Source of the DNA: Nitrospirota bacterium
GTDB lineage: Bacteria; Nitrospirota; UBA9217
Length of the DNA: 64,000 bases
Assembly (NCBI GenBank): GCA_963796285.1
Contig: CAWCKW010000012.1
Span: forward strand, 64,001-128,000
Direction: 5' to 3'
Position numbers and translations under genes: made by a program. Shown piece by piece: positions 10,523 through 51,643 of this stretch (its first letter is position 1; each line of letters begins with the position of its first letter). The notes under the pieces were generated by a model. It searched no databases. It saw nothing but the letters and a program-made list of their open reading frames with translations, and was not told the origin of the DNA.

Positions 10523-11374
10523 ATGAAAAAAGTATTTTTCTTGTTCTGTATTGCTCTGACGCTTGCGCTTCCCGTGTCTTCCCATGCAAGTGAATCCGTC
10601 CCCACGCCGAATGTGGCGCTCTCCCCGAAAAAAATAGGACCCGGCGACCTCCTGCTCATTACGGTGAAAAATACCAATGCCCCTGTTGAAGGGACGTTCG
10701 ACAGCAAAAAAATCTACTTCAATTCGTCGCAGAATGGCTACAAAGCGGTTGTTGGCATCGATCTGCTCAGTGAACCGGGAAAATATAAACTCGAGATCAC
10801 CACTAACGGGACGACCATGCATCGCATCGTAACGGTATCAAAAAAGAAATACCCTGTCCAGCAGCTCACTCTTCCCAAGGGCATGGTAGAACTATCTCCG
10901 GAGAACGAGGCTCGCGCCGAACGGGAACAGAACAAGGTGGCCTCGATCTGGCCGAACCAGTCGGACCGGATCTGGTCGGGCAATTTTACGAACCCCCGCG
11001 AAGGAGAGATCGTTACAAAGTTCGGCGTCAAGCGGTTCTTGAACCATATCCCCAAGAGCCCCCACACCGGTGTTGATGTCGCTGCCAAGGAAGGCGACGA
11101 CGTGATCGCTCCGAACAGCGGTATCGTGGTCCTGGTCGATGACCTTTTCTTTACCGGGAACTCGATCGTTCTTGATCACGGCCAGGGAATTTTCACGATG
11201 TTTTTCCATCTCTCGAAAGTTCTCGTCCAACCAGGCCAGCAGGTCAAGAAGGGCGATGTGATCGGCCTCGTCGGCTCGACCGGCCGCTCAACGGGCGCCC
11301 ATTTGCACTGGGGTGCGCGCGTCCAGGGCGCAAGGGTGGATCCGTTGGAATTGATACATCTGAAACTGCAATAG
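10523..11374 (+). CDS. M23 family metallopeptidase
   Basis: Signal peptide; HTGVD, HLS, STGAHLH motifs. Confidence 0.9.
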   Translation: MKKVFFLFCIALTLALPVSSHASESVPTPNVALSPKKIGPGDLLLITVKNTNAPVEGTFDSKKIYFNSSQNGYKAVVGIDLLSEPGKYKLEITTNGTTMHRIVTVSKKKYPVQQLTLPKGMVELSPENEARAEREQNKVASIWPNQSDRIWSGNFTNPREGEIVTKFGVKRFLNHIPKSPHTGVDVAAKEGDDVIAPNSGIVVLVDDLFFTGNSIVLDHGQGIFTMFFHLSKVLVQPGQQVKKGDVIGLVGSTGRSTGAHLHWGARVQGARVDPLELIHLKLQ

Positions 11375-11456
11375 CAAAGAACAGGGAGTAGGGGGCTGCG
11401 GGAAAGAAGAGGAACAGTTAATTTTCATGCCGCGATTCGAATTCCGCAATAAGAAT

Positions 11457-12224
11457 ATGATCAAAGTCCTCTCCATAGCAGGCTCCGATCCGTCGTCCGG
11501 CGCCGGGATCCAGGTCGACCTCAAGACCTTTCAGCGGCTGGGCGCTTTCGGCATGGCCCTGCCGGCTGCGCTCACGGTACAGAACAGCCTGGGTGTCTCG
11601 GCAGTCGAACCGATCTCATCAGCGCTGCTTTCAAAGCAGCTTGACGTTCTGCTTTCGGACATCACGCCTGATGCGATCAAGACCGGCATGCTCATGACGA
11701 AGCAGAACATTGGGGCCGTGGTAAAGGCAATGACCAGGCATTCGATCACGAACCTTGTCATCGACCCCGTACTCCGGTCCAGTTCCGGGAAACTCCTGCT
11801 CGAACAAGATGCTGTTGCGGTCCTGAAGAAAAAGCTTTTTCCCCGGGCGCTCATAATTACACCGAACATTCCTGAGGCTGAAGCGCTGACCGACATGGCG
11901 ATAGGTTCTGATTCGGACATGGATTTTGCGGCAGGCAAACTGCTTGATATGGGGCCGGCGTATGTGCTCATCAAAGGCGGACATCGCCTTGGACCGGCTG
12001 TGGACACCCTGTATGGAGGAAAGACCGTGCTCAGCTTCTCCACACCACGGCGAAAAGGGGAGTTTCATGGCACCGGGTGCGTACTTTCCTCGGCAATAAC
12101 CGTGTTCATAGCCCGGGGATTACCTGTGCATAAGGCTGTGGAAAAGGCAAAACAATTTGTGGATATGATGTTGAAACGTGCGAAGCGGGTGGGGAAGGGC
12201 AGGACGAACTATTTCCAATTCTGA
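11457..12224 (+). CDS. thiD: hydroxymethylpyrimidine/phosphomethylpyrimidine kinase
   Basis: IAGSDPSSGAGIQVDLK, IKTGM, TPNIPEA, HGTGC. Confidence 0.95.
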   Translation: MIKVLSIAGSDPSSGAGIQVDLKTFQRLGAFGMALPAALTVQNSLGVSAVEPISSALLSKQLDVLLSDITPDAIKTGMLMTKQNIGAVVKAMTRHSITNLVIDPVLRSSSGKLLLEQDAVAVLKKKLFPRALIITPNIPEAEALTDMAIGSDSDMDFAAGKLLDMGPAYVLIKGGHRLGPAVDTLYGGKTVLSFSTPRRKGEFHGTGCVLSSAITVFIARGLPVHKAVEKAKQFVDMMLKRAKRVGKGRTNYFQF

Positions 12225-12242
12225 GACGACGGAGAGAGGGAG

Positions 12243-12297
12243 GGGGAACACGGCCGTTAAGCCACCGCGTTGCGGTTCGGCTTGACCTCCGTTCTCC
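12243..12297 (-). repeat. degenerate attC-like site
   Basis: Minus strand GGAGAAC...TCAAGCC.AACCGC-AAC-GCGGT-GGCTTAA...GTTCCCC, downstream of aroK. Confidence 0.45.
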
Positions 12298-12334
12298 CGG
12301 AGCGCGGGTTTAGACCGTCGCTTTCAGCATCTAA

Positions 12335-12850
12335 TTAGCTTTTCTCTCTCGCTCGGCTAATGATTCTTGCACAGATTTCCTCTTGAGTCAGACCAGCGCA
12401 TTTGATAGTGAGGTCTGCGTACTTTGAGTAAAGAGTTAAGCGCTCGTGAAACAAACTGGCTAAGTCCTGCTCCGGCCTTTTTGCAAGACCTCTCGTAAGA
12501 AAGTTATTAATCCTTGCTTCCAGTGCGGGCAACTCCACATCGAGAAAGATGACAAGGCCGTCTGACTTGAGGTGAGCCATTGCACGGTCACTGTAAACGG
12601 CGCTGCCACCCGTGGCAATGACGCAGTTTTGGACGGAAAGCCCAAGCAGAACATCTTCCTCTATCTTCCGGAGGACAGCGTATCCGTTTGTATCTACAAT
12701 ATTCTGCAATGTTCGTCCTTGTGACGTCTGAATGAGCACGTCTGTATCCACGAAGTCACGTGACATCTGCTTCGCCAGGATGACGCCGACGGTGCTCTTA
12801 CCTGCGCCTGGCATTCCTATTAAAATAAGATTTGAACGCGCTGTTGACAT
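12335..12850 (-). CDS. aroK: shikimate kinase
   Basis: LIGMPGAGKSTVG, FVDTD, VIATGGS, ER..LY. Confidence 0.9.
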   Translation of the reverse strand: MSTARSNLILIGMPGAGKSTVGVILAKQMSRDFVDTDVLIQTSQGRTLQNIVDTNGYAVLRKIEEDVLLGLSVQNCVIATGGSAVYSDRAMAHLKSDGLVIFLDVELPALEARINNFLTRGLAKRPEQDLASLFHERLTLYSKYADLTIKCAGLTQEEICARIISRAREKS

Positions 12851-12860
12851 GATTCTCGAA

Positions 12861-12908
12861 AACCAACGATGAGCTGGCCCGCTTGACGCGTTGAGCGTTT
12901 GGTCAGCC
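12861..12908 (-). repeat. degenerate attC-like site
   Basis: Minus strand GGCTGAC-CAAACGCTCAAC...GCGGGCCAGCTCATC-GTTGGTT, just upstream of the aroK start. Confidence 0.5.
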
Positions 12909-13013
12909 CGATATCCCTTTGACTGTGATAGTCAACGTCGGCCACTATGTCCACGACGTTTCAAATAACTCACTGATCCGAAATTGACGACAGTGCTTCC
13001 GTCAACGTGGCCT

Positions 13014-13641
13014 TTAAAGTGATGGAGCTTGGCTGTTCTTTTCCATGAGGTCGGCCAGTTTCGACCAGTCGAAGGAGAGGAGGTTCATGATCTGCGATCG
13101 GATTTTTCGTATTGCCGCGGATGCGTCACCCTCCTTTTTCATATTATAAAACGGAAGGACCGCGCCAAACGTACGCTCGATGTAAACTGGGATCGGCGGC
13201 AGAACGTCACCGCGTCTCGTAAAATAGGGATCTTCTCCGGGCGCGCAGGGGACCGTGAACACATTGAACATTCTGCACCCCACCGGCCGGACAGGGTGAA
13301 TGGAGCAGAAATTATCGATAAGAAACGGGCACCCCGATGCGGCCGTATGGGCCGCAAGCCGGCTCCTCAGGACGTCCCTGACGGGCGATGTAATTTTCTC
13401 CGTGGCATACCAGTAGATGCCGACAAGTTCGTGCGGGTACAGGGGAAGGTCCTTTTGATCAACGCAGCAGGTGCCGCATCCTTTTCCGCAGGCGAGAGTT
13501 TTCTTCTGCTTTTTCTCCATATCCCGTGATCGCGATCGCCACTCCGGTATCGGCGATCGAGTACGCGTCAAGAAGCAGGGAAAGCCAGGGAAGGCGTTGC
13601 TCGTCAGATGGGAAAGTGAAGGCGCCGCGAAAGACCGGCAT
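13014..13641 (-). CDS. YkgJ-family CxxxCxxCC (zinc/Fe-S) protein; frameshift near 13525
   Basis: CGKGCGTCC, CPFL...CSIHPVRPVGCRMF; N-terminus is in ORF 13459..13641 in another frame. Confidence 0.8.
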
Positions 13642-13832
13642 TCATCTGTCCCCGGTTTTTTTTCATATTGTCATTTTGCTCATTGTTTTTTCCAGGCAAG
13701 TGCGGACCATGATGGTGAATCACATTAACAATCAGCGAAAGGAATGTCAACAGGAAACCTGACAGCGGGCTGGGACAGCGGCAAGAACGAAAAATCGTCG
13801 AACGTGAGCCGCTCCGGGTGACTCGAACGGGA

Positions 13833-13899
13833 AATGAACGGCCGGTGTCAGCTGCTCACAAAGCGCAGCGGATCGTGCCGGCTGCACGCAGTGTGAGGC
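13833..13899 (-). repeat. degenerate attC site
   Basis: Minus strand GCCTCAC-ACTGCGTGCAGCCGGC...CCGCTGCGCTTTG...GCAGCTGACACCGGCC-GTTCATT. Confidence 0.6.
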
Positions 13900-13936
13900 G
13901 GTCACGATGTGCCGAAGATGTGTGTGTCGAAGTGGC

Positions 13937-14905
13937 TTACCACAGGTGATGCACTTGCGAGCGAATGTGGCGGTCGTAGATCGCCTGAATCTTCTCCATG
14001 GTGGAGCCGGAAAGCGAGGGCAGGTCGGCGGCACGGATATTGTCTTCGGCCTGCGCGGGGCGCTTGGCCCCTGGGACGGTACAGGTCACGGCATCGGACA
14101 TCAGTATCCAACGCAGGGCCATTTGCGCCATCGTCGCGTTTGATGGAACCAGCGGACGCAATTCCTCCACAGCCTTAAGTCCGATCTCGAAATCCACGCC
14201 TGAGAACGTCTCGCCCCGGTCGAACGCCTGGCCTTTACGATTGAAGTTGCGGTGGTCATCGCGCGAGAACGTGCTGGCAGGCGTCATCTTGCCGGTAAGC
14301 ATGCCGGAGGCGAGGGGTACGCGGGCGATGATCCCCACACCGCTGCGTTTGGCCTCCTCAAAAAAGCTTTCGGCCGGTCGCTGCCGGAAGATGTTGTAGA
14401 TGATCATGACGGATTGGACGTTGGGATATGTGATGGCCTTTTCAGCCTCCACGATGCGCTCCACGCTGACGCCGTAATGACGGATCTTGCCCTGCGTCAC
14501 CAGACCGTCCAGGATGCCGAAGACGTCGGGGTTATAGGCCTCGATGGGCGGGCAGTGCAGCTGCATGAGATCTAAAACCTCGACGCCCAGGTTCCGCAGA
14601 CTATTTTCGACAAAGGCTGTCATATTCTCGCGATTGTAGCCTTGGGCGTCGGGATTGATCTGCATGCCCATTTTGGTTGCGATATAAAACGGCTCACGGC
14701 GTTGCCGCCGCAGACGGCCCAGCAATGGCTCGCTGCCATATACGTCGGCGGTGTCGAAGAAGTTGACGCCCAGATCCAGAGCGCGGTTAAGGGTGGCGAG
14801 CGATTCGCGGTCATCCACCGGTCCCCATAAACTGCCCATTGCCCACGTACCGAGGCCTATGGCTGATACCTTCCAACCTGTGCGTCCGAGGTCACGATAT
14901 TCCAT
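13937..14905 (-). CDS. aldo/keto reductase
   Basis: GRTGWKVSAIGLGTW, FFDTADVYG, IATK, LHCP, PLASG; AGGAGG RBS before the ATG at 14905. Confidence 0.93.
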   Translation of the reverse strand: MEYRDLGRTGWKVSAIGLGTWAMGSLWGPVDDRESLATLNRALDLGVNFFDTADVYGSEPLLGRLRRQRREPFYIATKMGMQINPDAQGYNRENMTAFVENSLRNLGVEVLDLMQLHCPPIEAYNPDVFGILDGLVTQGKIRHYGVSVERIVEAEKAITYPNVQSVMIIYNIFRQRPAESFFEEAKRSGVGIIARVPLASGMLTGKMTPASTFSRDDHRNFNRKGQAFDRGETFSGVDFEIGLKAVEELRPLVPSNATMAQMALRWILMSDAVTCTVPGAKRPAQAEDNIRAADLPSLSGSTMEKIQAIYDRHIRSQVHHLW

Positions 14906-15003
14906 TTTTCCCGCCTCCTTTGGCTCCTGGCCGTGTTCACCGAACACCGCATTGGGCCGCGTCATGAGTATGATCTCAGTCTTTCAAAACCTGATTAGTT
15001 ATA

Positions 15004-15068
15004 TGCTAATGACAGTGAGATACCCGCACCCAGTGCCAACAGCATCAGATCTCAAAATGACGTTAGAG
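15004..15068 (-). repeat. highly degenerate attC-like site
   Basis: Minus strand CTCTAAC...TGAGAT...ATCTCA...ATTAGCA. Confidence 0.4.
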
Positions 15069-15102
15069 CCAGAAAGGATAAATTAGATAGATGTTGTGCG
15101 AT

Positions 15103-15564
15103 CTATTTTTTAATGGAAGACTTCAGCCAGTTCGCATCGGCCTTTTTGATGTTACCGGGAATATCCCTGCTCCATTTTTCATATGCTGTCGCGCTGCAAT
15201 TCAGGTATAGCTTCCCGTCAACGATCTTCCACACTTCAGGATCGGTTTTGGCTATTCGTGCTTCTGTCAGGGCCCAGGCGCAATAACCGTCATATTGCGG
15301 AGCGTATTTCTCCGGACTGGCCGCAAACAGGTCCCTGTTCTCTTTGGTCGAGAAATACCAGGTCATGTCATGCCACTTGAAGGTAAATGACTCGTTGCCT
15401 TTTAGTGCTTTGCCGGCCGTGAAATATGCGACGGTATCGTACCCCTTTATTGCCAAATCATCTGCCGGTGGATTTCCGGCAGCTATGCCGCCGAACCCGG
15501 TCAATAGCAGCAATACAAAGGATAAACTCATGAGAATCCCAGCTGATGCGTTCTGAAGTTTCAT
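15103..15564 (-). CDS. exported YHS-domain protein
   Basis: AIKGYDTVAYF, FAASPEKYAPQYDGYCAW, IVDGKLYLN, IKKADANW. Confidence 0.88.
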   Translation of the reverse strand: MKLQNASAGILMSLSFVLLLLTGFGGIAAGNPPADDLAIKGYDTVAYFTAGKALKGNESFTFKWHDMTWYFSTKENRDLFAASPEKYAPQYDGYCAWALTEARIAKTDPEVWKIVDGKLYLNCSATAYEKWSRDIPGNIKKADANWLKSSIKK

Positions 15565-15666
15565 ATCCGATTGCCTCCCTGTTTATGATTAGTTAATATG
15601 TGCAAATCGATCCTTGGTGTCATTTTATATAATACCTCTTTGAGAAAAGTTAAAATATGATGAGAA

Positions 15667-16074
15667 TCAAACCATAGCCTCCTTGGACCCTATCCATTCA
15701 AGGCAATCCTGGTAATTCTTGAAAACATGCAATTCCTTAGAACCACTCGGCAAAAGACTCCGATATATCTGATACATGCGTGCCAGCCCATACGCTATGG
15801 GTTTGTTTACAACAATTGCAAGTTTGGTCTTTACTCCTTGCGGATCATTCATGGAGGCCATATGCGCAAGCTTTTTTATACCTTCAGAGCTCAATAAAAA
15901 ATTACTTGCGGCGCTGAAGTCTACAATTTCGTTGTATGAGGCATAACGGGGCAGGCTTTTTATGTTTTGTTGATATTTAGCGAGGGCATCAGAAAGTTCA
16001 CTGTCAACGGCATCTCCAGACCAGATTGTAGTAATAAGTTTAGCGTCATCATCGATTTTATGCAGTACTGGCAT
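15667..16074 (-). CDS. hypothetical protein (SpoIIAA/STAS-like fold)
   Basis: EIVDFS...KLAIVV...AYGLARMY...VFK...LEWI pattern; starts just after an attC. Confidence 0.65.
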   Translation of the reverse strand: MPVLHKIDDDAKLITTIWSGDAVDSELSDALAKYQQNIKSLPRYASYNEIVDFSAASNFLLSSEGIKKLAHMASMNDPQGVKTKLAIVVNKPIAYGLARMYQIYRSLLPSGSKELHVFKNYQDCLEWIGSKEAMV

Positions 16075-16087
16075 AGTCCACCATAAG

Positions 16088-16155
16088 TGCTAACATGCGA
16101 GTTCAGCGGTACGTGCGGCGTTTTATAGCGTACCGCCGGGGATGAATTGTCAGGC
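16088..16155 (-). repeat. attC site
   Basis: Minus strand GCCTGAC-AATTCATC...GCGGTACG...CGTACCGCTGAACTCGCAT-GTTAGCA. Confidence 0.7.
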
Positions 16156-16175
16156 GCTGGCGGTGCCCGGCAGCC

Positions 16176-16460
16176 TCAATACGCGACCGTAAAGCGCCGG
16201 CGGATGTGAGTGGGTCGCTCCAGTTCGTCGAGAAGAGCGACTGCGTAGTCCTCGACCGAAATGCGGCTCACGCCGGCTGAGGAAGCTCCAGTCCACGTTG
16301 CTCGTGCTCGCACGGAAGAGCTCCAGGGCCTGGACTTGGGCAGGCCTCCGCTTTCCATTCTGCAGGGAATTGGGGCGTGTCGATTTAAACGCACTCCAAG
16401 CGCGACCAGAAGGCTGCCGCCTCCGCCCCACACCAGGCGCTTCACACCCGCCCAGGGGAG
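16176..16460 (-). pseudogene. decayed NAD(P)-binding oxidoreductase (YwnB-like) remnant
   Basis: Fragments AGVKRL..GGGGSL and SRISVEDYAVALLDELERPTHIRRRFTVAY; N-terminal Rossmann motif and middle missing. Confidence 0.7.
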
Positions 16461-16626
16461 AGGTAGTGCCATAAATTGAGGATAGCAGTGACGGTGAGAC
16501 TTGTCAATGACAGCACCTAAGCCCATTGGCTAAGGCCTACACCAGATGATCCAAGGTTAATTTGCTTGCGAAAGTGGAAAGCGCGGGTTATTATGACACT
16601 TCGGTTAAGGTCACGGGATATATATC

Positions 16627-17157
16627 ATGCACCGCTTATTCGACAAATCTTCTATTTTATTTATAAAAATAGCCATTCTATCTCTTCTGACCGTCGTTCC
16701 TTTTTCTTATGCGGCCTCAAACCCTATACGGGAATCGGCACCGGACTTTACGTTATCCGACATGCAGGGCATCGCGCACAAGCTCGCTGATTATCGCGGC
16801 AGCGTAGTGGTTTTGAATTTCTGGGCCTCATGGTGTCCGGAATGCGTGATCGAGATGCCTTCTCTCGATAGCCTCTACAACCGGCTGAAAAAGGACGGTC
16901 TGATGGTGATCGGGGTCTCCGTCGACAGGACCCGCGGAGACATCGCTCAGTTGGCCGGCAAAGTGTCGTATCCAATACTGCTTGACGAAAAAGGAGACGT
17001 GTTCGTAAAAAAATACACGATTACCCGGCTGCCGGCCACGATCATCATCGATCGCGATGGGGCCATCGTTAAGAAGATCTTCGGTGGACGGGATTTCAGC
17101 TCCGGGGCCTTTATCGGGGAAATGACCGGTCTCTTGCAGGAGAAAAAGGCGCAATGA
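16627..17157 (+). CDS. TlpA-family thiol-disulfide oxidoreductase
   Basis: APDFTL, LNFWASWCPEC, LPATIIID. Confidence 0.9.
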   Translation: MHRLFDKSSILFIKIAILSLLTVVPFSYAASNPIRESAPDFTLSDMQGIAHKLADYRGSVVVLNFWASWCPECVIEMPSLDSLYNRLKKDGLMVIGVSVDRTRGDIAQLAGKVSYPILLDEKGDVFVKKYTITRLPATIIIDRDGAIVKKIFGGRDFSSGAFIGEMTGLLQEKKAQ

Positions 17158-17507
17158 AACGCTTTTACGGGCATATCGGGGCGGCACTCTGCGTGGTCCT
17201 CCTGGCAGGCTGCGGTCCCTCGACATTCTTAATAGACAAGGCGGGCACCTCCGCGTACTTCGGTCGTAACAATCAGTATCTTAACAAGAAGCTGTGCACC
17301 AGTGGCGAATTGAGGCTGATACTCGCGGACGCGGACCTTCCCCGGGAGATAGAAAGCGATTTCTATCGCTATACCTGCTCGGAGGAGAGGTCCTACGATA
17401 AAGTCATTTCCCTCTATCTTGTTCTGACGCCGGTGGAAAAGATGCAATTAAAGCGGGCGTTCGAAAAACACGGGTACGAAGTGAATCGCCTGCACTGCTG
17501 AGGCTGA
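17154..17507 (+). CDS. lipoprotein of unknown function; possibly ends Cys-Sec-Gly by UGA recoding (otherwise ends at 17501)
   Basis: Lipobox LLAGC; ATGA overlap with the tlpA-like gene; ends TGC TGA GGC TGA followed by a hairpin. Confidence 0.7.
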
Positions 17508-17670
17508 CGCACTGCCCCGGTCGGGGCACAAAAACCTGCATGGATGGAGCGGAAAACGTTGGCTGACAAACGGTGCTGAACCAGTGCCGTGAGCGGCCCG
17601 GGTAGCCGTAGTTCGCATATCATTCGCACGTTGTGGCTGTCTGCATGTGAGGCGCCACGGAGCATTCACC

Positions 17671-18639
17671 ATGGCTAATATCATCCCTTTCCTCATACAG
17701 CACGGATACTCCGTAGTGTTTATCTGGGTCTTTGCAGAAACAATGGGGCTTCCCATACCGAGCGCTCCTCTGCTTATCACGGTCGGGACCATGGCCGGTG
17801 TCGGACAGTTGAACCTGTTCCTCTGCATAGGATCAGGCGTCTGTGCAGCGCTGGTGAGCGACCTGTTTTGGTTCGCTATGGGAAGGCGACGCGGAGGCAA
17901 GGTGCTATCCGTGCTTTGCCGCATATCTCTCGAGCCTGACTCCTGCGTCCGGAGGACGGAAAGTATCTTTACCCGGTACGGCGGCCGCTCCCTTCTGGTA
18001 ACTAAATTTTTCCCCGGATTTGGCGCTGTGTCGACTCCGATGGCGGGCATGATCGGCATGCGTCTGTGGCGTTTTTTACTTTTCGACGGTATGGGCATCA
18101 TCGTCTGGGTCGGCGCCTATACACTTCTCGGGTATATATTCAGTAGAAAACTCGATCGTGCGTTGGATTATGCCGCGGGAATGGGCAAAACGCTCTCGGT
18201 GTTGGTGGCCGGCGGGCTGGCGCTGTATATCCTCCGGAAGTATGCCTTGCGCCGGCGCATTTTGCGCGAGCTCTACACCGCGCGCATCACCCCGGAAGAG
18301 CTGAAGCAGAGGCTGGACGCGGGCGAAGATGTCGTTATCATCGATCTGCGCCACGAACTTGACTTTGAACATGATCCCTATATCATACCCGGCGCTTTGC
18401 GGATCCCCCTGGATGAGGTAGCGCGCCATCCGATCGTTTCGAGCGATCGCGAGATCGTAGCCTATTGTACGTGCCCCAACGAAGCCTCCAGCGCCCAGGT
18501 GGTGCTGCGGCTATCCCAGCAGGGGATTACGCGCATTCGGCCGCTTGCCGGCGGTTTTCACGCCTGGCGCGACCGCGATTATCCCGTAGTACTGGCGGAA
18601 GGCAGAAATCATAAAGATCCAAAGTCCAGAATATTTTAA
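17671..18639 (+). CDS. DedA/VTT membrane protein fused to a rhodanese domain
   Basis: ETMGLPIP, GRRRG, KFFPGF DedA motifs; C-terminal IIDLR, IPGA, YCTCPNE, LAGGFHAW. Confidence 0.9.
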   Translation: MANIIPFLIQHGYSVVFIWVFAETMGLPIPSAPLLITVGTMAGVGQLNLFLCIGSGVCAALVSDLFWFAMGRRRGGKVLSVLCRISLEPDSCVRRTESIFTRYGGRSLLVTKFFPGFGAVSTPMAGMIGMRLWRFLLFDGMGIIVWVGAYTLLGYIFSRKLDRALDYAAGMGKTLSVLVAGGLALYILRKYALRRRILRELYTARITPEELKQRLDAGEDVVIIDLRHELDFEHDPYIIPGALRIPLDEVARHPIVSSDREIVAYCTCPNEASSAQVVLRLSQQGITRIRPLAGGFHAWRDRDYPVVLAEGRNHKDPKSRIF

Positions 18640-18663
18640 GCGTTACGAATGAAGTATATAAAC

Positions 18664-18698
18664 AAAAAAGTGCCGCCTTAAGCTTGAAGGCGGCACTT
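18664..18698. terminator. hairpin terminator between convergent genes
   Basis: AAGTGCCGCCTT/AAGGCGGCACTT perfect inverted repeat with an A run. Confidence 0.75.
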
Positions 18699-18777
18699 GT
18701 ATGTTAGGCTCAGAGACGGCGGCCATAGACAATGCGGCGATGCACCACCACCCGCTTCCTGCAGTTTACTGCTTCAC

Positions 18778-19974
18778 TCAGAGTCTGGAAGCGGGAATCC
18801 GTCCATAATAGCATTGCAGCTGGTTTGCGGTCACCCCGATCAGGCAGTACCCGCAGTTAATGCACCGCGAGCTTTCCTGCCCCTGCTGGAATCTGTTCAC
18901 AATATCAGGTTCGATGACGAACGGCCGCGACAGGGACACAAAGTCAATTCCCTTATCCGAGATGATCGTTTTTATGTCCTGTAAATTTCTGATTCCGCCC
19001 ACTGCTATGACTGGTATGCCGACATTACGCTTGATATGTTCTGCAAGGGGAACATTATAATTGTGGAGGGGCATTCGGACCTTTGCCAGGAAGGGGGCCA
19101 TGATCCTGAAAAGTCCTTTTTGATAACCGGGCATATCGCGATACTTCGGCATGAGCCCAAGGACGGCGTCCACGGGAACCTTGGGCATGCGGACAGCGTA
19201 CATAAAGTCTCCATAACCGCAGGAGACTTCGATGGCATCGCAGGAGGCTGCCTCCAGTATCCGGGCGATCTTCACCGCCTCGGTTTCGGCCAGTCCCCGT
19301 CTGAATTCATCATGGCCGCTCATCTTTACGAGGATCGGAAAATCACCGACTTCCGTTCGTGCGGAGGAGATAATCCCGGTCACGATCCGCAACCGATTTT
19401 CTGTTGATCCGCCCCACTGGTCCCTGCGTTTGTTCAATACCGGGGAAACGAATTCGGAAAGAAGATAGCCATGTGCAGCATGGAGCTCTACTCCGTCAAA
19501 ACCCGCTGTCTTCGCACGCACGATAGCAGCCACGAATGCCCCGACGATCGACCGGATCTCCGCCTCGCTCGCTTCTTTTACCACGTCTCCGTAATCGTTC
19601 TTTTTTCGTCCGCTCGCGCTGATAACGTCCTGGCCCGTGACTTTCGACATTGACCTGCTGCCGCCGTGGGCGATTTGCAGGATGATCGGAGTTTTGAACT
19701 GCTGCAGCTGGTCGGTGATGGATTTGTATACGGGAATATAGGTGTCGCTATCAAACATGCGCATGTTCGGGAACGTCTTGCCGTTCTGTTTCACGCCAAC
19801 GTACCCGGTGATGATCGCCCCTGCACCGCCTGTTGCCAGATCTTGATACGTCCGCAGAAGATCGTCCGTCGGCATACCGTCGCGATGGGCCATACCTTCA
19901 TGTGTTGCGGCACGGATGATCCTGTTTTTTAACGTGAGATTTCCTATTGAACAGGGTTCAAATACGTGCTTCAT
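18778..19974 (-). CDS. NADH:flavin oxidoreductase (old yellow enzyme family)
   Basis: LKNRIIRAAT, QIAHGG, AGFDGVELHAAHGYLLSEF, C-terminal CINCGYC. Confidence 0.92.
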   Translation of the reverse strand: MKHVFEPCSIGNLTLKNRIIRAATHEGMAHRDGMPTDDLLRTYQDLATGGAGAIITGYVGVKQNGKTFPNMRMFDSDTYIPVYKSITDQLQQFKTPIILQIAHGGSRSMSKVTGQDVISASGRKKNDYGDVVKEASEAEIRSIVGAFVAAIVRAKTAGFDGVELHAAHGYLLSEFVSPVLNKRRDQWGGSTENRLRIVTGIISSARTEVGDFPILVKMSGHDEFRRGLAETEAVKIARILEAASCDAIEVSCGYGDFMYAVRMPKVPVDAVLGLMPKYRDMPGYQKGLFRIMAPFLAKVRMPLHNYNVPLAEHIKRNVGIPVIAVGGIRNLQDIKTIISDKGIDFVSLSRPFVIEPDIVNRFQQGQESSRCINCGYCLIGVTANQLQCYYGRIPASRL

Positions 19975-20022
19975 CAGATGCTCCTCTTATTTTGAAGTTT
20001 AGTGAGCTTATATGGTAGTGAT

Positions 20023-20117
20023 AATGAACGAAGTGAATTTACCGGCGCGACGGCCACTTGATTAGTAAACACGGCTGCCTGCCGCAGAGGTGCGTCCGGT
20101 GCAATGATCTGTCAGGC
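20023..20117 (-). repeat. attC site (partly degenerate)
   Basis: Minus strand GCCTGAC-AGATCATTGCACCGGACGC...GCGCCGGTAAATTCACTTC-GTTCATT, starting right after the stop of the preceding gene. Confidence 0.7.
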
Positions 20118-20118
20118 G

Positions 20119-20577
20119 TCAAGCTGCCGACGTTGTTGCCGCCTGAACAGCACGTCGAAGTTCGAGCGGTGATGCGACCGCTTTAAACTCTTCTCGCGTG
20201 CCGCCGGTGCCGGTAACAACGATGTCGCCGTAACCGAGCATTTTCCCCAACAGCCCCTGATTCACGCTGATGGCTTCGACTTTCGTGTGCAGCAGCTCCA
20301 CGGTGCGAGTAGTAAAGACCCCTAGTTTGACAATAATGCGCTTATTCGTAACCGCGAATTCTGAATTAGCCCGTTTGATGAACGGAACAAGGATCAAGAG
20401 TCCAGCCAAAATTAATAAGATCAGTCCAGTTCCTTTTGCCCCACTGCCGAATAAGCCTATCGACGCAAGGAGCAGGATGCCGGCGAAGAATCCGGGAACC
20501 AGAAAGACTTGCCAATGAAGTTTTGATCGGTACATAACGTTTTCGCCGGGGAGAAGCTGTGAGTCTACGTAGCTCAT
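20119..20577 (-). CDS. bacterial PH-domain (bPH) membrane protein
   Basis: MSYVDSQLLPGE, two TM helices, EFAVTNKRIIVKLG, QGLLGKMLGYG. Confidence 0.85.
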   Translation of the reverse strand: MSYVDSQLLPGENVMYRSKLHWQVFLVPGFFAGILLLASIGLFGSGAKGTGLILLILAGLLILVPFIKRANSEFAVTNKRIIVKLGVFTTRTVELLHTKVEAISVNQGLLGKMLGYGDIVVTGTGGTREEFKAVASPLELRRAVQAATTSAA

Positions 20578-20612
20578 GAATGCCTCCTTGGATTCTTAAT
20601 GAGAGTATGGTT

Positions 20613-20882
20613 GGGGACATCGGCTCTTATGATGCATAATTGTCACCGCTACTTTTCCCCAATTTTGCAATCGTTCGGGTGATGCTCGACGTGTTCACAC
20701 CCAATTGCCATGCCATCTCCGCCATGGACAGCCCAAACTCATCCAAACTTCTCCTCGCTTGTCGCGGTATGCGTTCATTCTCTATGATGAAAAGCAAAGG
20801 CCTTACTTCCAAATATGGTATGCACCGTAAGAACCAATGTCCCCAAAGTGTCAATGTTGAAAGTCAAACAATATGGACCTGA
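20613..20882 (-). pseudogene. remnant C-terminal HTH of a REP-associated/IS200-like transposase
   Basis: DEFGLSMAEMAWQLGVNTSSITRTI resembles the C-terminal HTH of such transposases; ATGTCCCC motifs flank it in inverted orientation. Confidence 0.45.
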
Positions 20883-20933
20883 CGATAAGGGGGTTCCTAA
20901 GAGATTTCGAATCTGCGCATCCTTTCGTACGTC

Positions 20934-21323
20934 CTAAGCAGAGTTCCTGAGTACTGCTGCCAGGGCCGCAGGCTCAGCCACGCTCACCATGAGTTGCCGC
21001 AAGCGGACCGGGAAGCCCATGACGTACCCGCGCTGGCTCGGTGTCAGGTCGATCGTCAGGATTCCCTGTCCCGATCCGTTCACCAGCCATCGACCCGCGA
21101 ATCCATGCACCCCACGACTGAGCGGGCGCTCATGCGTTTCCGACGCTGAGGCGACGGCTGCTCTCGGGAAGCGAGATCGAAATGCCCAACCCATTCGGAC
21201 GCTGACCTGCTCGCTGTCTACCTCGACGTAGGAACTCGAAGGGGGCAGAAACAACGCACTCGACAGAATTCCGTACCACACGTCGAACCGAATGGGAAAT
21301 CGCTGAGGTCTACCGTTGTTCAT
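20934..21323 (-). CDS. hypothetical protein
   Basis: VRMGWAFR, GVHG..GRWLVNGS..G pattern; AAGGA RBS before the ATG at 21323. Confidence 0.65.
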   Translation of the reverse strand: MNNGRPQRFPIRFDVWYGILSSALFLPPSSSYVEVDSEQVSVRMGWAFRSRFPRAAVASASETHERPLSRGVHGFAGRWLVNGSGQGILTIDLTPSQRGYVMGFPVRLRQLMVSVAEPAALAAVLRNSA

Positions 21324-21472
21324 AATTCCTTTCATCGAAGCGCCGCCAGGTGCGGCGGGTGTCGCCACTCTCTCGAGCCGAATGGTTGGAATCATCGTCA
21401 GGTTTCACTCCGTTCTATCCGACCTGCCATCTTGGCGCAAGGAACCGCTTGGTTAGGCCTTGAGCCCTGACG

Positions 21473-22342
21473 TTAAGGAGCTGACGGGTTAGCAAGATTG
21501 AATTCAGATTCAGCACGCTCGTTCCATAGAACTACTCCACGCATCGTATCATCGTACGAGGAGGTGAAATCGAAGCTGAGCACGATAAGGCCTCCAACGC
21601 CGGCAGCAACATCTAATGAAGAAGTATGGTGGCCATGGGCAGCAGCATAAACAGGTGCAGCCACCGCCAGGAGTGCCGCAACTGCAATACCCAGCCGAAC
21701 TAAACCATTGCGCGTTTCACCGAGATACATTTGCCCGAATCCGGGGATAAGAGATCGGACAGCGGCAGTTTCTTTTGACTTCCACGGAATTGTTTTTGCT
21801 TCTTTGGCAAATGCCGCCAATGATGAATTCGGCTGCTCTTTGATGAGCTCGTCAAATGCTTCAGGTGAAGTACGCGGCAATCCTTGAGCACCCACAGATC
21901 GATAAGCCCAGCCTAGCCGATAAAGTGTGAGGGGCCTCAGTTTTGTTTGCGGATGCAGTTCAAGAAGTGTTTCCCAAATTTGAACCGCACTGTCCGGCGC
22001 TCGAAAGCGTAAATCTTCCAAATCCAATGATCCGGCCAGGCTTTGGAATCCAGGGAAGTCGGTGATGGCAGCAGCGGCCTCAGCCAGATATTTTCCAGTG
22101 CTTCGTTCAGGGGGTAAGAACCTGTATCGATAAAAACCTTCTGCCTGCAGAAAAAGACTGCGTTCGGATGGCTCTGGCTTATATTCATCTACGGTCTTTT
22201 CGGTGCGTTGAAGCTGCTGCTGTGCTGTGGAAAATGTCTGATCATCTTGACGAATCAGCACTGAGTTAGCGGAACATGCATTTAGCAAACCACCGATCAG
22301 CATCATACCGATGTATTTTACGGCATGCGGAAATTTATCCAT
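21473..22342 (-). CDS. hypothetical lipoprotein with a TPR-like segment (gene cassette)
   Basis: Lipobox-like LNAC, LYRLGWAY, SLIPGFGQMYLG; bounded by GTTAGAC (22374-22368) and GCCTAAC (21458-21452). Confidence 0.75.
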   Translation of the reverse strand: MDKFPHAVKYIGMMLIGGLLNACSANSVLIRQDDQTFSTAQQQLQRTEKTVDEYKPEPSERSLFLQAEGFYRYRFLPPERSTGKYLAEAAAAITDFPGFQSLAGSLDLEDLRFRAPDSAVQIWETLLELHPQTKLRPLTLYRLGWAYRSVGAQGLPRTSPEAFDELIKEQPNSSLAAFAKEAKTIPWKSKETAAVRSLIPGFGQMYLGETRNGLVRLGIAVAALLAVAAPVYAAAHGHHTSSLDVAAGVGGLIVLSFDFTSSYDDTMRGVVLWNERAESEFNLANPSAP

Positions 22343-22367
22343 ATTGTGATGGCTCCGTGTTTTTACG

Positions 22368-22426
22368 GTCTAACGCGGCGCTGACGCGCCGACTTTGGCG
22401 CGTCGCTGTCGAGCGCCAGGTTATTT
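22368..22426 (-). repeat. intact 59-bp attC site
   Basis: Minus strand AAATAAC-CTGGCGCTCGACAGCGACGCGCC-AAAGTC-GGCGCGTCAGCGCCGC-GTTAGAC; R'' overlaps the TAA stop of the upstream gene. Confidence 0.88.
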
Positions 22427-23386
22427 CACATATAGAGGGACGGCAGCGTCCATGACAACATCTTCCGTCTTGTTGGTTTTGATATTATGTGACCTAATCA
22501 ACCCACCATCAGGACCTTCCGCTGTTTCGTAGTACACGATTTCATTGTTCACACCACCCAGCGTAAATAATGCCGGTGAAAAACCCGGCTGAATCATCGT
22601 CGAAGGTTTTAGTGTTTTTGTTTTAATATCGTAAATGGACAATACGTTTGCAGCAACACCATCAGAAACGACAACTTGATCGCTGCTGAGCCAAACGGAA
22701 CTCATACCACTGCTAATTTCAGTCGTCTTGTGTCTAGAGTTGCTCAGGTCCATGAGGTAAACACCCCATTTCTTGGCCGAAAAGGGATATAGTTTATCGA
22801 AAAAACCAAATCTGAACGAAGCAAAGGATAACCATTTGCCATCAGGTGACCACTTTACCTGGCTATGTGGAAAAGGCACGTCCTGTGTTACGTCGTCTAT
22901 TTTCTTAGACTTTATATCGATTATGATAATGTGTCTCACCCGCTCCTTTACCGGTTTAAAGAAATAACTTAATCTGACATCCATTTGCTCTTTCGTGTGG
23001 CTTATTAAAGCAATCTTGTCGCCAAGGGGTGAAAATGAAGGCTGGCTTGCATCGGTTGTTACTTCCGCAATAAAGGTTTCAGTTCCTGATTCCGTATCAT
23101 ATACATAAAGCTTTTTCAATGCTCTTATGTATGCGATTTTTCTCGCATCGGTGGATACAGTGTAATTGCGAATGTCTCGACTGGAAGTTAATCGTTTTTC
23201 TGATTTGTTCTCGATGTTATACGCCCAGATATCGTCATTACGCAAAAAAAGTAGTTTATTTTGTATGTCCGATTTATTAATCTTTGTCGCGTCACTGGCA
23301 AGGCTAACACCACTGACACCAAAGGCAACAATGATTATAGATACAAGTACCGCAGTTATTAGCTGCAATTTGTAGCATATTTGCAT
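22421..23386 (-). CDS. exported TolB-like/PD40 beta-propeller protein (first gene cassette)
   Basis: Signal peptide; STDARKIAY, PSFSPLGDKIA, WSPDGKWLSF repeats; AT-rich. Confidence 0.8.
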   Translation of the reverse strand: MQICYKLQLITAVLVSIIIVAFGVSGVSLASDATKINKSDIQNKLLFLRNDDIWAYNIENKSEKRLTSSRDIRNYTVSTDARKIAYIRALKKLYVYDTESGTETFIAEVTTDASQPSFSPLGDKIALISHTKEQMDVRLSYFFKPVKERVRHIIIIDIKSKKIDDVTQDVPFPHSQVKWSPDGKWLSFASFRFGFFDKLYPFSAKKWGVYLMDLSNSRHKTTEISSGMSSVWLSSDQVVVSDGVAANVLSIYDIKTKTLKPSTMIQPGFSPALFTLGGVNNEIVYYETAEGPDGGLIRSHNIKTNKTEDVVMDAAVPLYVK

Positions 23387-23398
23387 GTGCGTTTCTCC

Positions 23399-23417
23399 AT
23401 ATAACCAGTAATTAGCG
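23399..23417 (-). other. attI-like integron recombination site
   Basis: Minus strand CGCTAAT-TACTG-GTTATAT: 7-bp L box, 5-bp spacer, GTT R box, the same layout as attI1 (CCCTAAA-ACAAA-GTTRRRY); no attC hairpin upstream. Confidence 0.75.
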
Positions 23418-23426
23418 GTACGGAAT

Positions 23427-23456
23427 ACACTAGCATGGAACCGATTTGTGAGTCAA
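23427..23456 (-). promoter_or_regulatory. Pc-like cassette promoter
   Basis: Minus strand TTGACT-18 nt-TAGTGT with an extended TGn motif, pointing into attI. Confidence 0.6.
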
Positions 23457-23473
23457 TGAATTTGAGAAAAAAC

Positions 23474-23502
23474 TTGACGTATCTTGCGGATTTAATTAAA
23501 CT
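23474..23502 (+). promoter_or_regulatory. divergent sigma70 promoter (Pint-like position, now upstream of rph)
   Basis: TTGACG-17 nt-TAAACT. Confidence 0.65.
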
Positions 23503-23639
23503 TCGAGCAAATGACTAATATGCATATAGTGATATTAAAAAATTATTGAGACTAATATGCAATTTCGGTATTAGCTAATTCCAGGAGGAGAAGGAATTCG
23601 CCGGCCCGCTGGATTTTTAAAGCTGAGAGGAGACATTTA

Positions 23640-24352
23640 ATGCGTAGTGACGGAAGAAAGGCGGACGAACTCCGCAAGATAAAGATAACCAGGAACTACA
23701 TCAAGACAGCTGAGGGTTCGGTGCTGATCGAGATGGGCGACACCAGGGTCATCTGCACGGCCACGGTCGAAAATCCGTCCCTCCTTTTTTGCGCGGCAAA
23801 GGAACGGGCTGGGTCACGGCTGAATACGCCATGCTTCCACGTTCCTCGGGTCAGAGGATCCAGCGCGAGCGGAGCAAGGTGGGCGGCCGTACGCACGAGA
23901 TCCAGCGGCTCATCGGCAGGTCCCTTCGCTCGGTTGTCGATATGAAGGCGCTCGGCGAACGGTCCGTGCTGATCGATTGCGACGTGATCCAGGCGGACGG
24001 CGGCACGCGCACCGCATCGATCACCGGGGCGTACATCGCGCTCGTCGATGCGCTCCGCCATATTGAAAAGCAGGGGCTGATCAAGTCTGTGCCGGTCACG
24101 GACTACCTTGCCGCGATCAGCGTCGGCATCGTAGACAACAAACCCATGCTCGACCTGTGCTATGTCGAGGATTCGACAGCGGAAGTGGACATGAACCTGG
24201 TGATGACGGGCAAGGGAAAGATCGTTGAGGTGCAGGGCACTGCCGAGGGCGAACCCTTCTCCAGGGCCGAGCTCGGCAAGCTGCTCGGGCTCGGCGAAAA
24301 GGGCATCAAGATGCTGGTCAAGAGACAACGGGCGCTCTTGAACAAGTCTTAG
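23640..24352 (+). CDS. rph: ribonuclease PH; one-base frameshift near 23770
   Basis: [57 protein letters not shown] split over two frames. Confidence 0.93.
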
Positions 24353-24394
24353 ATGCAAGAAAGCGGGTAAATTTAAGGATAGAAAAAATGCTGA

Positions 24395-24556
24395 ACCGCC
24401 GAGACGCGGAGACGCAGAGGTCTCTTGAAATTGATGAACTAGATGGTTTGTTCAGGTCGGGAACATTAAAATTCATCAACTTACCTGACGGTCGATTCTA
24501 AAAACCCAGGGCCTTTTCAGCAATTGGTTTTCTCTGCGTCTCCGCGTCTCCGCGGT
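24395..24556. repeat. inverted repeat element with 9-nt periodic arms
   Basis: ACCGCCGAGACGCGGAGACGCAGAG ... CTCTGCGTCTCCGCGTCTCCGCGGT (24/25 complementary). Confidence 0.85.
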
Positions 24557-24652
24557 GAATGATGGAAGTTAAGGAAGCTCAATAACTCCATCGATGTTAT
24601 TTTCATACGTGTCTCATCCGTCTGAATCCGCTCCGAAAAAGTCGAGGTTCTC

Positions 24653-25222
24653 TTGTCCCTCTTGACGATCTTCTTTATCACCTTCGGCCTCATCTTCACC
24701 GCTGAACTCGGCGACAAGACGCAGCTCATGGTCTTTACCCTTGCGCTTCGCTACGGAGGACGGCCGGTCCTTGCCGGGGCGTTCCTTGCCTTCGCGATGC
24801 TGTCGGGAAGCGCCGCGATCGTGGGGAGGGGAGTGGGTGAGCTGTTGTCGCCCGTCCTGATCACGCGCATCTCTGCCTGGGTGTTCATCCTCTTTGGCCT
24901 GTACATGTTGCTGCGCAAGACTGAGGAAGAATCGCCGGAGCAAATCAAACCGTCTGCACGGGCCGGGTTCATCGCGGCCTTCAGTCTGATCGCCATCTCT
25001 GAGATGGGGGACAAGACGCAGATCGCGACGCTGCTCCTGTCCGTAAAATATCAGAGCTTCCTCGCGGTATTCCTCGGCAGTCTTGCCGCCCTCAGCTTCG
25101 CCACGCTGATCGGGATCCTCGTTGCCGGCAGGCTCCATACGTTCATCCCGGCCAGATACATCCGTCCGGCATCCGGCATTCTCTTCGTTCTTCTCGGCAT
25201 CGGCACTCTTGTACTTGCGTGA
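24653..25222 (+). CDS. TMEM165/GDT1 (UPF0016) Mn2+/Ca2+ transporter
   Basis: Two E-x-G-D-K-T-Q motifs (ELGDKTQ, EMGDKTQ). Confidence 0.92.
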   Translation: MSLLTIFFITFGLIFTAELGDKTQLMVFTLALRYGGRPVLAGAFLAFAMLSGSAAIVGRGVGELLSPVLITRISAWVFILFGLYMLLRKTEEESPEQIKPSARAGFIAAFSLIAISEMGDKTQIATLLLSVKYQSFLAVFLGSLAALSFATLIGILVAGRLHTFIPARYIRPASGILFVLLGIGTLVLA

Positions 25223-51450: not shown

Positions 51451-51602
51451 TGTCCATCAGAAGGCCACGAGCTGATCGTATGGCCTGTTCGGAATAATCG
51501 GCAAGCGAATTTTCGGGATGTTGTCGTACAAGTTGGGTTGCGAGGGCCCAAGCAGGATTTGTTTTATCGGGTAGCAGACAAAGAATTTTTCCAAAGAGAA
51601 TA

Positions 51603-51643
51603 AACAAACCGCCGGGGGCATGGTCCTCGGCGGTTTGTTATTT
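51603..51643. terminator. bidirectional terminator
   Basis: AACAAACCGCCG...CGGCGGTTTGTT between convergent genes. Confidence 0.75.

Follow-up and report, generated by a model that had tools for sequence, protein, structure and literature searches.

Sedentary chromosomal integrons carry homogeneous, lineage-specific attC sites, the Vibrio repeats being one example. Cassette arrays without an integrase gene are also common in bacterial genomes, and their origin is still debated. By the definition of Cury et al. 2016 (PMC4889954), a cassette array with no intI nearby is a CALIN (a cluster of attC sites that has no integron-integrase); intI loss is among the possible origins that they list, and a recognisable intI pseudogene was present within 10 kb of only 15 of their 279 CALIN. 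In Xanthomonas, chromosomal integrons occupy a fixed site downstream of ilvD and, according to Colombi et al. 2025 (PMC12444791), have had intI inactivated repeatedly and in a lineage-specific manner. For the phylum Nitrospira, the figures that Neron et al. 2022 give for complete genomes include only two CALIN. Here we describe a locus in a 64,000-nucleotide stretch of an uncultured Nitrospirota genome (contig CAWCKW010000012.1, positions 64,001 to 128,000; hereafter the window, whose own numbering is used throughout). Positions 12225-23620, between thiD and rph, very probably represent a decayed sedentary chromosomal integron that was acquired at this site by a sub-lineage of an uncultured Nitrospirota genus. 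An original prediction, made from the letters of the window, had proposed a chromosomal integron frozen by loss of its integrase gene or served in trans. The first of these proposals is supported and sharpened by a complete intI at the same locus in a congener, by a deletion scar and by an attI core shared with complete integrons. The element is of a kind already known, a decayed, CALIN-like chromosomal integron, and it adds a new example, not a new mechanism. The features that define it are as follows.

11427-12224, plus strand: thiD, phosphomethylpyrimidine kinase (Pfam PF08543, E 1.9e-79), the conserved left flank of the insertion site.
22368-22426, minus strand: attC of cassette 1, with R'' AAATAAC, R' GTTAGAC and three single-base bulges on the R''/L'' arm.
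22374-23404, minus strand: cassette 1 (1031 bp), with a 321-aa open reading frame (ORF) at 22421-23386 that has weak beta-propeller matches.
23402-23417, minus strand: attI core CGCTAATTACTGGTTA, with the crossover GTT at 23405-23403.
23427-23456, minus strand: candidate cassette promoter Pc (TTGACT, 18 nt, TG-n-TAGTGT), which aligns with TTGATA-17-TATAGT of congener G006.
23474-23502, plus strand: candidate integrase promoter Pint, TTGACG-17-TAAACT (consensus scan, 9/12 matches).
23513-23524 and 23550-23561, plus strand: two direct copies of GACTAATATGCA, a candidate operator, between Pint and the intI ribosome-binding site.
23581-23620, plus strand: intI deletion scar, in which the final nine codons and the stop (23591-23620) are joined to the ribosome-binding site CCAGGAGGAGA (23581-23591).
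23640-24352, plus strand: rph, RNase PH (Pfam PF01138 and PF03725, split across two ORFs), the conserved right flank.

The ~11.4 kb between thiD and rph hold twelve minus-strand ORFs and one three-gene block on the plus strand. The ORF list and Pfam assignments agree with the prediction that ~11 kb of functionally unrelated, mostly minus-strand genes lie here. The products that Pfam identifies are a shikimate kinase, a CxxCxxCC protein, an aldo/keto reductase, a YHS protein, an AhpC/TSA redoxin, a VTT-rhodanese protein, an old-yellow-enzyme-type oxidoreductase and a bPH_2 protein, and several other ORFs of the interval matched no Pfam family. The G+C content is 0.38-0.42 across 22500-23499 and in cassette 1, versus 0.48-0.61 in the remaining array.

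We compared this interval across relatives. The spacing between thiD and rph is 47-370 bp in G008 (47 bp), G012, G013, G014, G015 and G018, and reaches 5.8, 6.3, 8.1 and 11 kb in G005, G004, G006 and G001, respectively, and 11.4 kb in the window. Among 35 related loci with at least 63% ThiD identity, which may overlap with these genomes, rph starts at most 375 bp after thiD in 20, the gap measures 1.07-1.28 kb in two and 5.8-6.4 kb in another two, and rph was not found in 11 (five with the full 10 kb downstream and six where the contig ends earlier). In distant relatives thiD and rph adjoin each other and the gene order of the window is not kept; the second condition set beforehand as refuting the prediction, the same order across distant relatives, is thus not borne out. 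What lies between the two genes is an insertion whose content varies. The arrays of G004 and the window have only three blocks in common, and that of G004 ends with an attC of the family described below (50 bits) that abuts thiD. In a related metagenome-assembled genome (L067:12352-14208), thiD and rph are adjacent and two attCs of the same family (59 and 35.6 bits) lie just beyond rph, indicating that integron-type arrays are not confined to a single site near rph in this family of bacteria.

A complete intI (C11:113477-114418) is present in G006 between rph (111781-112447) and thiD (120556-121332). It is read toward rph, which is the orientation predicted by the window's array, and its 513-aa open frame matches positions 1-313 of the NCBIfam integrase model TIGR02249 with 383 bits, against a cut-off of 265 bits. 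The same model, searched over the whole genome of the window, gave no match in the window and at best 225 bits elsewhere, for a C-terminal fragment of 203 aa. The prediction that no intI adjoins attI is thus correct. Both edges of the gene are nevertheless recognisable in the window. The segments matching window 23432-23591 on contig C11 of the same genome and on contig C1 of G004 end in CCAG(A/G)AGGAGACC, followed by the intI start codon and the conserved N-terminus. Window positions 23591-23620 read AAG GAA TTC GCC GGC CCG CTG GAT TTT TAA. These codons match the intI ends of G006, G004 and G008 (...K-E-x-x-S-P-L-D-F-stop) and are followed by the rph ribosome-binding site and its ATG at 23640. 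The joining of the intI ribosome-binding site to the last nine intI codons shows that intI was deleted in situ. Some 1.5 kb was lost, with the left edge ~2 nt ahead of the start codon and the right edge nine codons short of the stop. At the shared right end lies a purine-rich AAGGAA, which points to microhomology; this motif, near the 3′ end of intI, and the likewise purine-rich ribosome-binding site may have mediated the deletion.

Different intI deletions are found at the same locus in congeners. G004 keeps ~42 N-terminal intI codons, an internal piece and the C-terminal end, and in G001, 19 N-terminal codons are joined to the last few codons. Upstream of rph in G005, no intI remnant was visible by eye, and tblastn found no intI at locus L054 (10-kb flank), whose 5.8-kb interval is like that of G005. 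That the deletions at thiD/rph differ between congeners indicates that they were independent. Across the genus, five of the nine genomes carry an intact intI, above the cut-off and without stops (G001, G005, G006, G007 and G008), and none was found in G000 (the window's genome), G002 (68% complete), G003 or G004. In the family, 18 of 41 genomes have a TIGR02249 match above the cut-off. Most of these matches sit in open frames of ~450-560 aa, versus the 315 positions of the model. The IntI proteins of G006 and G008 (L039:3471-5012 and L046:6803-8284) have ~170-200 residues before the SAM-like domain that match no Pfam family. The start of this extension in G006 weakly resembles a SAM-like domain (29% over 56 aa, E 0.046), a hint that the N-terminal domain may have been duplicated.

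The array was predicted to begin at an attI-shaped site, CGCTAATTACTG-GTTATAT, which occupies 23417-23399 on the minus strand, in the cassette orientation. In an alignment of seven attI regions, including those of G006 and G008 with their complete intI, TAAT-N-ACT-N-GT is invariant and the sequences diverge afterwards. The first cassette of the complete G008 integron starts at CGATAATCACTG|GTTAATG, and the attI of the complete G006 integron reads TATAATAACTG|GTTCATT. A copy of window 23402-23527 on contig C11 of the same genome is 95% identical, and the two copies part right after GTTA. At the sequence level, the proposed attI is real and places the platform/cassette boundary at the crossover GTT. 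Its core is common to the complete integrons of G006 and G008, confirming the site at which the array was proposed to start.

We next describe the attC of cassette 1. A covariance model, R1, was built from 11 attCs of the G008 array (sites of 55-61 bp), which was found by searching the genome and its relatives with TIGR02249 and lies beside a complete intI (493-aa open frame, 353 bits). In its training alignment, 96.8% of the cells were paired and 10 of 17 pairs showed changes on both sides; the observed score was reached by none of 500 shuffles, and slid controls paired at 30-48%. R1 was searched over the whole 64-kb window with filters off, and a broader model, R2, made from 31 sites of 14 loci outside the window, over 12000-23700 (E ≤ 10 for both). 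With R1, 22368-22426 reached 77 bits on the minus strand (E 2.9e-22) but 15.7 bits on the plus strand; its R2 score was 72.3 bits. Its single-stranded DNA fold has a z-score of -3.45, and none of 200 shuffles folded equally well. The site is 98% identical to one attC of the complete G008 integron, and its bulged positions coincide with the three unpaired columns of the model. It is a canonical attC, with R''/R' boxes, an imperfect hairpin, extrahelical bases and strand asymmetry. The claim of an intact 59-bp attC overlapping the stop codon of the first ORF therefore stands, the attC-model search that had been set beforehand as its refuting test having returned a hit.

Further searches covered the array by other means. 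A fold scan anchored on AAC/GTT, which found attCs elsewhere and is too strict for mutated cores, returned only 22368-22426 within the array. An Rfam scan of 11000-25000 (E ≤ 1) gave just a sub-threshold match to a small RNA at a terminator. Rfam has, to our knowledge, no attC family. Reading the sequence directly, we confirmed the proposed pairing of the cassette ends, GTTATAT with AAATAAC and GTTAGAC with GCCTAAC, at six of seven positions. Outside the array, at 51599-51643, a 45-nt palindromic hairpin with AAC/GTT-like ends scored 14.4 and 13 bits with the attC model on the two strands (E 0.1-0.3); most likely this is a terminator, or else a palindrome unrelated to attC.

By analogy with G006, the original element would have had intI facing rph, with attI, Pc and Pint upstream of intI, and its cassettes would have been oriented opposite to intI, toward thiD. 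The survivors are the attI core, the candidate Pc-equivalent promoter and Pint, the repeated candidate operator and one structurally intact cassette beside attI. Beyond them lie ~10 kb of older cassettes, whose attC sites have mostly lost their AAC/GTT cores or stems. As no intact intI was found in the assembly, the array is presumably static. Its cassette genes would then be fixed like any others, and Pc may transcribe the first of them.

The original prediction had also placed a promoter behind attI. The candidate Pc aligns with the promoter of G006, as listed above, and with TTGAC(T/C)...TACTGT in two other copies. Retention of Pc in the window is one of the weaker claims, suggested by homology to the strong promoter of G006. 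A consensus scan of 23300-23700 made a single call, 23474-23502, which faces intI/rph, with 1.2 such sites expected by chance. The predicted promoter thus finds support in the alignment but not in the scan. At Pint, TTGACGTA is conserved at the same locus in G004 and G001. With intI lost, the candidate Pint would now face rph.

The repeated motif downstream of Pint has a restricted distribution. Genome-wide, GACTAATATGCA has nine matches with at most one mismatch, of which the six exact ones all lie in four integron-relic promoter regions upstream of intI. Outside the window, exact copies are found at C11:8554, C12:978073 and 978110, and C13:357801, and in two of the four regions the motif is doubled, 37 nt apart. 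The equivalent sequence in G001 is a near-perfect palindrome, and the sequence that separates the two repeats is missing from some copies and metagenome contigs. GACTAATATGCA is a candidate operator for a regulator of intI. An SOS box was considered and rejected, as none of the nine matches is in an SOS-like setting; the genes beside the three one-mismatch sites were not annotated, and the regions upstream of lexA/recA were not searched.

The remainder of the array was predicted to contain six further attC-like sites, at 20023-20117, 16088-16155, 15004-15068, 13833-13899, 12861-12908 and 12243-12297, and lone GCCTAAC ends near 21452 and 18703. None of the six sites was matched by R1 in the whole window or by R2 over 12000-23700, and their folds have z-scores of 0.14, -0.70, 0.65, -0.12, 0.01 and -1.89, respectively. 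AAC is replaced by GAC or CAC in four of them, and GTT by ATT in one. They do not hold up as intact attCs, and the proposed total of seven or more sites was overstated. The two lone GCCTAAC motifs are present in the sequence, but their surroundings fold no better than shuffles (z +0.51 for 21400-21460 and +1.95 for 18690-18760). By the family-specific models, the array has one full attC and one partial relic at 12299-12325, and one more junction emerges from comparison alone. R1 and R2 are both specific to the ~60-bp attC family, and therefore a miss does not rule out other attC types; R1 missed a site of 80 nt that precedes the shikimate-kinase gene of G004 and whose R boxes look good. The only other low-E match of R1, at 18665-18701, was rejected as an attC, being a short, G+C-rich hairpin followed by a T run, terminator-like by eye. 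From thiD toward attI, the older part of the array comprises the following features.

12299-12325, minus strand: partial attC relic (local R2 match to model positions 17-44 with 13 bits; E 0.022 for 11.7 kb searched).
12335-12850, minus strand: shikimate-kinase cassette ORF (171 aa; Pfam PF01202, E 7.5e-35), the last gene of the array.
12861-12908, minus strand: degenerate attC of the CxxCxxCC cassette, with its junction at GTT 12867-12865.
13014-13571, minus strand: CxxCxxCC-domain ORF (185 aa; Pfam PF03692, E 1.9e-6), 91% identical in the G004 array.
13937-14965, minus strand: aldo/keto reductase ORF (342 aa; Pfam PF00248, E 8.7e-67); the claimed flanking sites 13833-13899 and 15004-15068 are unsupported.
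15103-15564, minus strand: YHS-domain ORF (153 aa; Pfam PF04945, E 7.3e-7, below the family cut-off).
15667-16526, minus strand: gene fragment (16176-16526), eroded attC-like site (16088-16155) and 135-aa ORF (15667-16074), common to the G004 array.
16459-18705, plus strand: three-gene block with an AhpC/TSA-like redoxin, a 115-aa ORF and a VTT(DedA)-rhodanese protein (Pfam PF00578, PF09335 and PF00581).
18778-19974, minus strand: old-yellow-enzyme-type flavin oxidoreductase ORF (398 aa; Pfam PF00724, E 7.7e-59); the claimed upstream site 20023-20117 is unsupported.
20119-21395, minus strand: three small ORFs, a bPH_2-domain protein (152 aa), 75 aa and 153 aa (ORF list, Pfam).
21452-22373, minus strand: cassette 2, with a 289-aa ORF (21473-22342) and a lone R''-like GCCTAAC end at 21458-21452, the rest of the attC being lost.

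Comparison with congeners shows that several of these units have behaved as cassettes or have decayed. The homology between window 12865-13815 and G004 stops exactly at ...CATCGTT, after which each genome has a different gene. This end coincides with the GTT of 12861-12908, showing that the latter is a real cassette junction. The partial relic at 12299-12325 directly follows the shikimate-kinase ORF; it has only the central part of the consensus, with the 3′ half and GTT lost, and it adjoins the claimed site 12243-12297 without being that site. In G004, a copy of the shikimate-kinase gene that is 90% identical lies on another contig, ~5 kb from a segment of the attI/Pint type, with an attC-like site upstream (GCCTAAC...GTTAGCT, by eye; no R1 match). 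Cassette 2 has a counterpart at another locus of G005, where an ORF 87% identical to that of the window follows a family attC (R1, 29 bits), and in both genomes the homology stops at the R'' box. Cassettes with the shikimate kinase and with ORF2 recur in other attC-bearing arrays of G004 and G005. The YHS ORF has a copy that is 86% identical on contig C11 of the same genome, preceded by ...CATCGTTAGCG, and another in the thiD-rph interval of G001.

In the block 15607-16271, which is 87% identical in G004, the counterpart of site 16088-16155 has not conserved the stem, and its GTT has become GTC, indicating neutral decay. G004 has the inverted block 16459-18705 in the same place, with 91% identity; the block has no attC and is not a canonical cassette. 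R1 and R2 recognised no attC between the three small ORFs of 20119-21395.

Integron relics are not confined to the thiD-rph locus. Across the genome, R1 found 15 family attCs, and the assembly contains at least seven other integron relics, which brings the total of integron platforms or intI remnants to at least eight. Exact or near copies of the attI core occur at four further places in the genome, C11:8661, C12:978217, C12:1656819 and C6:137654, and attC clusters begin shortly downstream of the latter two. Fragments of intI were detected at C12:1310519-1311094 (C-terminal 193-203 aa, then an antitoxin/ParE cassette and an attC), C12:425705-425851 (C-terminal 49 aa), C12:977894-978043 (~48 N-terminal codons fused to the last nine), C12:1544442-1544686 (~80 N-terminal aa) and on C11 (~20 N-terminal aa). 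Fragments only, and no intact intI, were found in the assembly with TIGR02249 and tblastn.

Some of these relics have a layout of their own. At L001:1495-2763 (C12:1310516-1311784), the C-terminal 203 aa of IntI abut a cassette with a PF09720 antitoxin and a PF05016 ParE toxin, followed by a family attC of 62.9 bits. The integrase-less arrays at C12:1656819-1660440 and C6:137654-139151 start with the attI core, followed by three and two family attCs, respectively. Upstream of the core at C12:1656819, we observed a match to the end of an element that is also present in the thiD-rph interval of G001 and is possibly a transposable element.

Several observations weigh against the proposal of a decayed integron that has lost its integrase. 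The candidate Pc was not called by the consensus promoter scan of 23300-23700. Only one full-length attC passes the family-specific models R1 and R2, and a strict CALIN definition needs two; the folds of the six other claimed sites are no better than those of shuffles. The inverted three-gene block lacks an attC, so that part of the interval may have arrived other than as cassettes. Moreover, with 96% completeness and 5% contamination, the assembly, a metagenome bin, could miss an intact intI that sits in unassembled sequence. Lastly, the two rph ORFs (23640-23945 and 23789-24352) result from one base missing near 23773, beside an A-run, by comparison with the intact gene of G004. This gap may be an assembly error or a real frameshift, and it suggests that the assembly contains small indel errors.

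The rival explanation that survives best, although we consider it improbable, is that the platform is still active. The integrase would be provided in trans from the unassembled ~4% of the genome, from co-resident strains or from incoming elements, and cassette 1 would be a recent capture. The structural integrity of attI and of the first attC is compatible with this scenario, and so is the foreign composition of cassette 1 (G+C ~0.40). Four DNA metagenome runs carry parts of the array, and in all four the depth over 22675-23141, within cassette 1, is almost nil. Moreover, G001 and G005, which have no intI at this locus, possess an intact intI elsewhere (373 and 361 bits), and a contig of metagenome run X1 leaves the window sequence at 12895, giving the shikimate-kinase cassette a different upstream neighbour. 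These arguments are countered by the lack of an intact intI in an assembly that is 96% complete, in which the four detectable remnants are all fragments and inspection by eye added two shorter ones. Likewise, no IntI exceeds the cut-off in G004, the closest relative (89% complete). Furthermore, the downstream attCs are eroded, and hence at most one cassette would be mobile, and the sole metagenome joint without ORF1 lies off the canonical G|TT crossover. The second proposal of the original prediction, an integrase served in trans, is not supported for this assembly, in which no intact intI was found at 96% completeness.

That joint is found in one X1 contig (depth 6.65, with 31 letters on the shorter side), which joins 23403 to 22422, the attI GTT against the attC AAC. 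What it omits is precisely the 980-nt stretch with ORF1, and what it would leave is an attC-only cassette devoid of an ORF. We did not use it as a case of cassette excision because it is a single contig and its position is not that of the canonical crossover. A 2-nt TA microhomology could be an alternative cause.

Much less probable still is an assembly artefact, in which the contig would have collapsed or been mis-joined across repeated attI/Pint sequence and thereby lost intI. The attI/Pint segment is indeed repeated on C11 at 95% identity and at other loci, and the bin's contamination and the probable one-nucleotide error in rph could be seen in the same light. However, the junction lies outside the repeated sequence, with the ribosome-binding site joined to the 3′ end of intI and then to unique rph sequence. 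G004 aligns from 23591 onward at 94% identity, and at this locus three congeners carry intI deletions that differ. The idea of an ordinary, hypervariable island in the genome at thiD/rph, with one chance attC-like hairpin, as might be imagined from the inverted three-gene block, from housekeeping-like genes such as those for shikimate kinase and aldo/keto reductase, and from the lack of a recognisable attC over most of the 11 kb, is hardly credible given an attC that reaches 77 bits with a model that was trained on the integron of a different genome, an attI core common to complete integrons, a cassette junction at GTT, an intI remnant in the expected position and orientation and the complete intI of G006 at the same site.

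A chromosomal integron that lost its integrase gene in place thus remains by far the preferred reading, and the locus and its congeners form a natural series, with a complete intI at one end, a 30-nt remnant at the other and three different partial deletions in between. The series shows that intI can be removed so fully that it escapes profile searches, while attI and the candidate promoters persist, and it also shows the later erosion of attC sites. With this locus, integrons with a genus-specific attC family are extended to uncultured soil and peat Nitrospirota. A broader and rather doubtful idea is that the lineage runs many small integron platforms per genome, which repeatedly lose intI and spare attI, Pc, Pint and the 12-nt operator. 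In such a scenario the regulatory region could be kept because it drives host genes, the cassettes from Pc and rph from Pint, and the retained attI sites may act as docking points for integrase supplied in trans at the population level.

How, then, does this locus compare with the described systems? Like a CALIN, the window has a cassette array with no intI nearby. It differs in keeping attI, the promoter region and a 30-nt remnant of the intI 3′ end, and a congener keeps intI at the same site. With these relics and the congener's gene, the origin of the array by in-situ deletion becomes directly demonstrable. The window has one attC that passes the models, where the definition of Cury et al. 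2016 (PMC4889954) asks for at least two on one strand, and its intI remnant is far below the 50% coverage by which the same report recognises pseudogenes. Nor is the locus a complete integron; it has at least one attC but, in place of the required adjoining intI, only nine intI codons. The In0 class, described in that report as intI (with attI) devoid of cassettes (PMC4889954), is likewise an incomplete platform, with the opposite defect, since the window keeps attI and cassettes and lacks intI.

The window's genus has a very similar attC family of ~58-60 bp in common, in the manner of the Vibrio-type integrons. Unlike in those integrons, the arrays of the window's genome are short and scattered over many loci, with no integrase left. 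The resemblance to the Xanthomonas integrons, as portrayed by Colombi et al. 2025 (PMC12444791), lies in the use of one fixed site per genus, in the repeated and independent loss of intI in some lineages and its retention in others, and in the stabler arrays. The differences lie in the phylum, Nitrospirota, in the thiD/rph site, in the near-complete deletion of intI and in the presence of at least seven further integron relics in the same genome.

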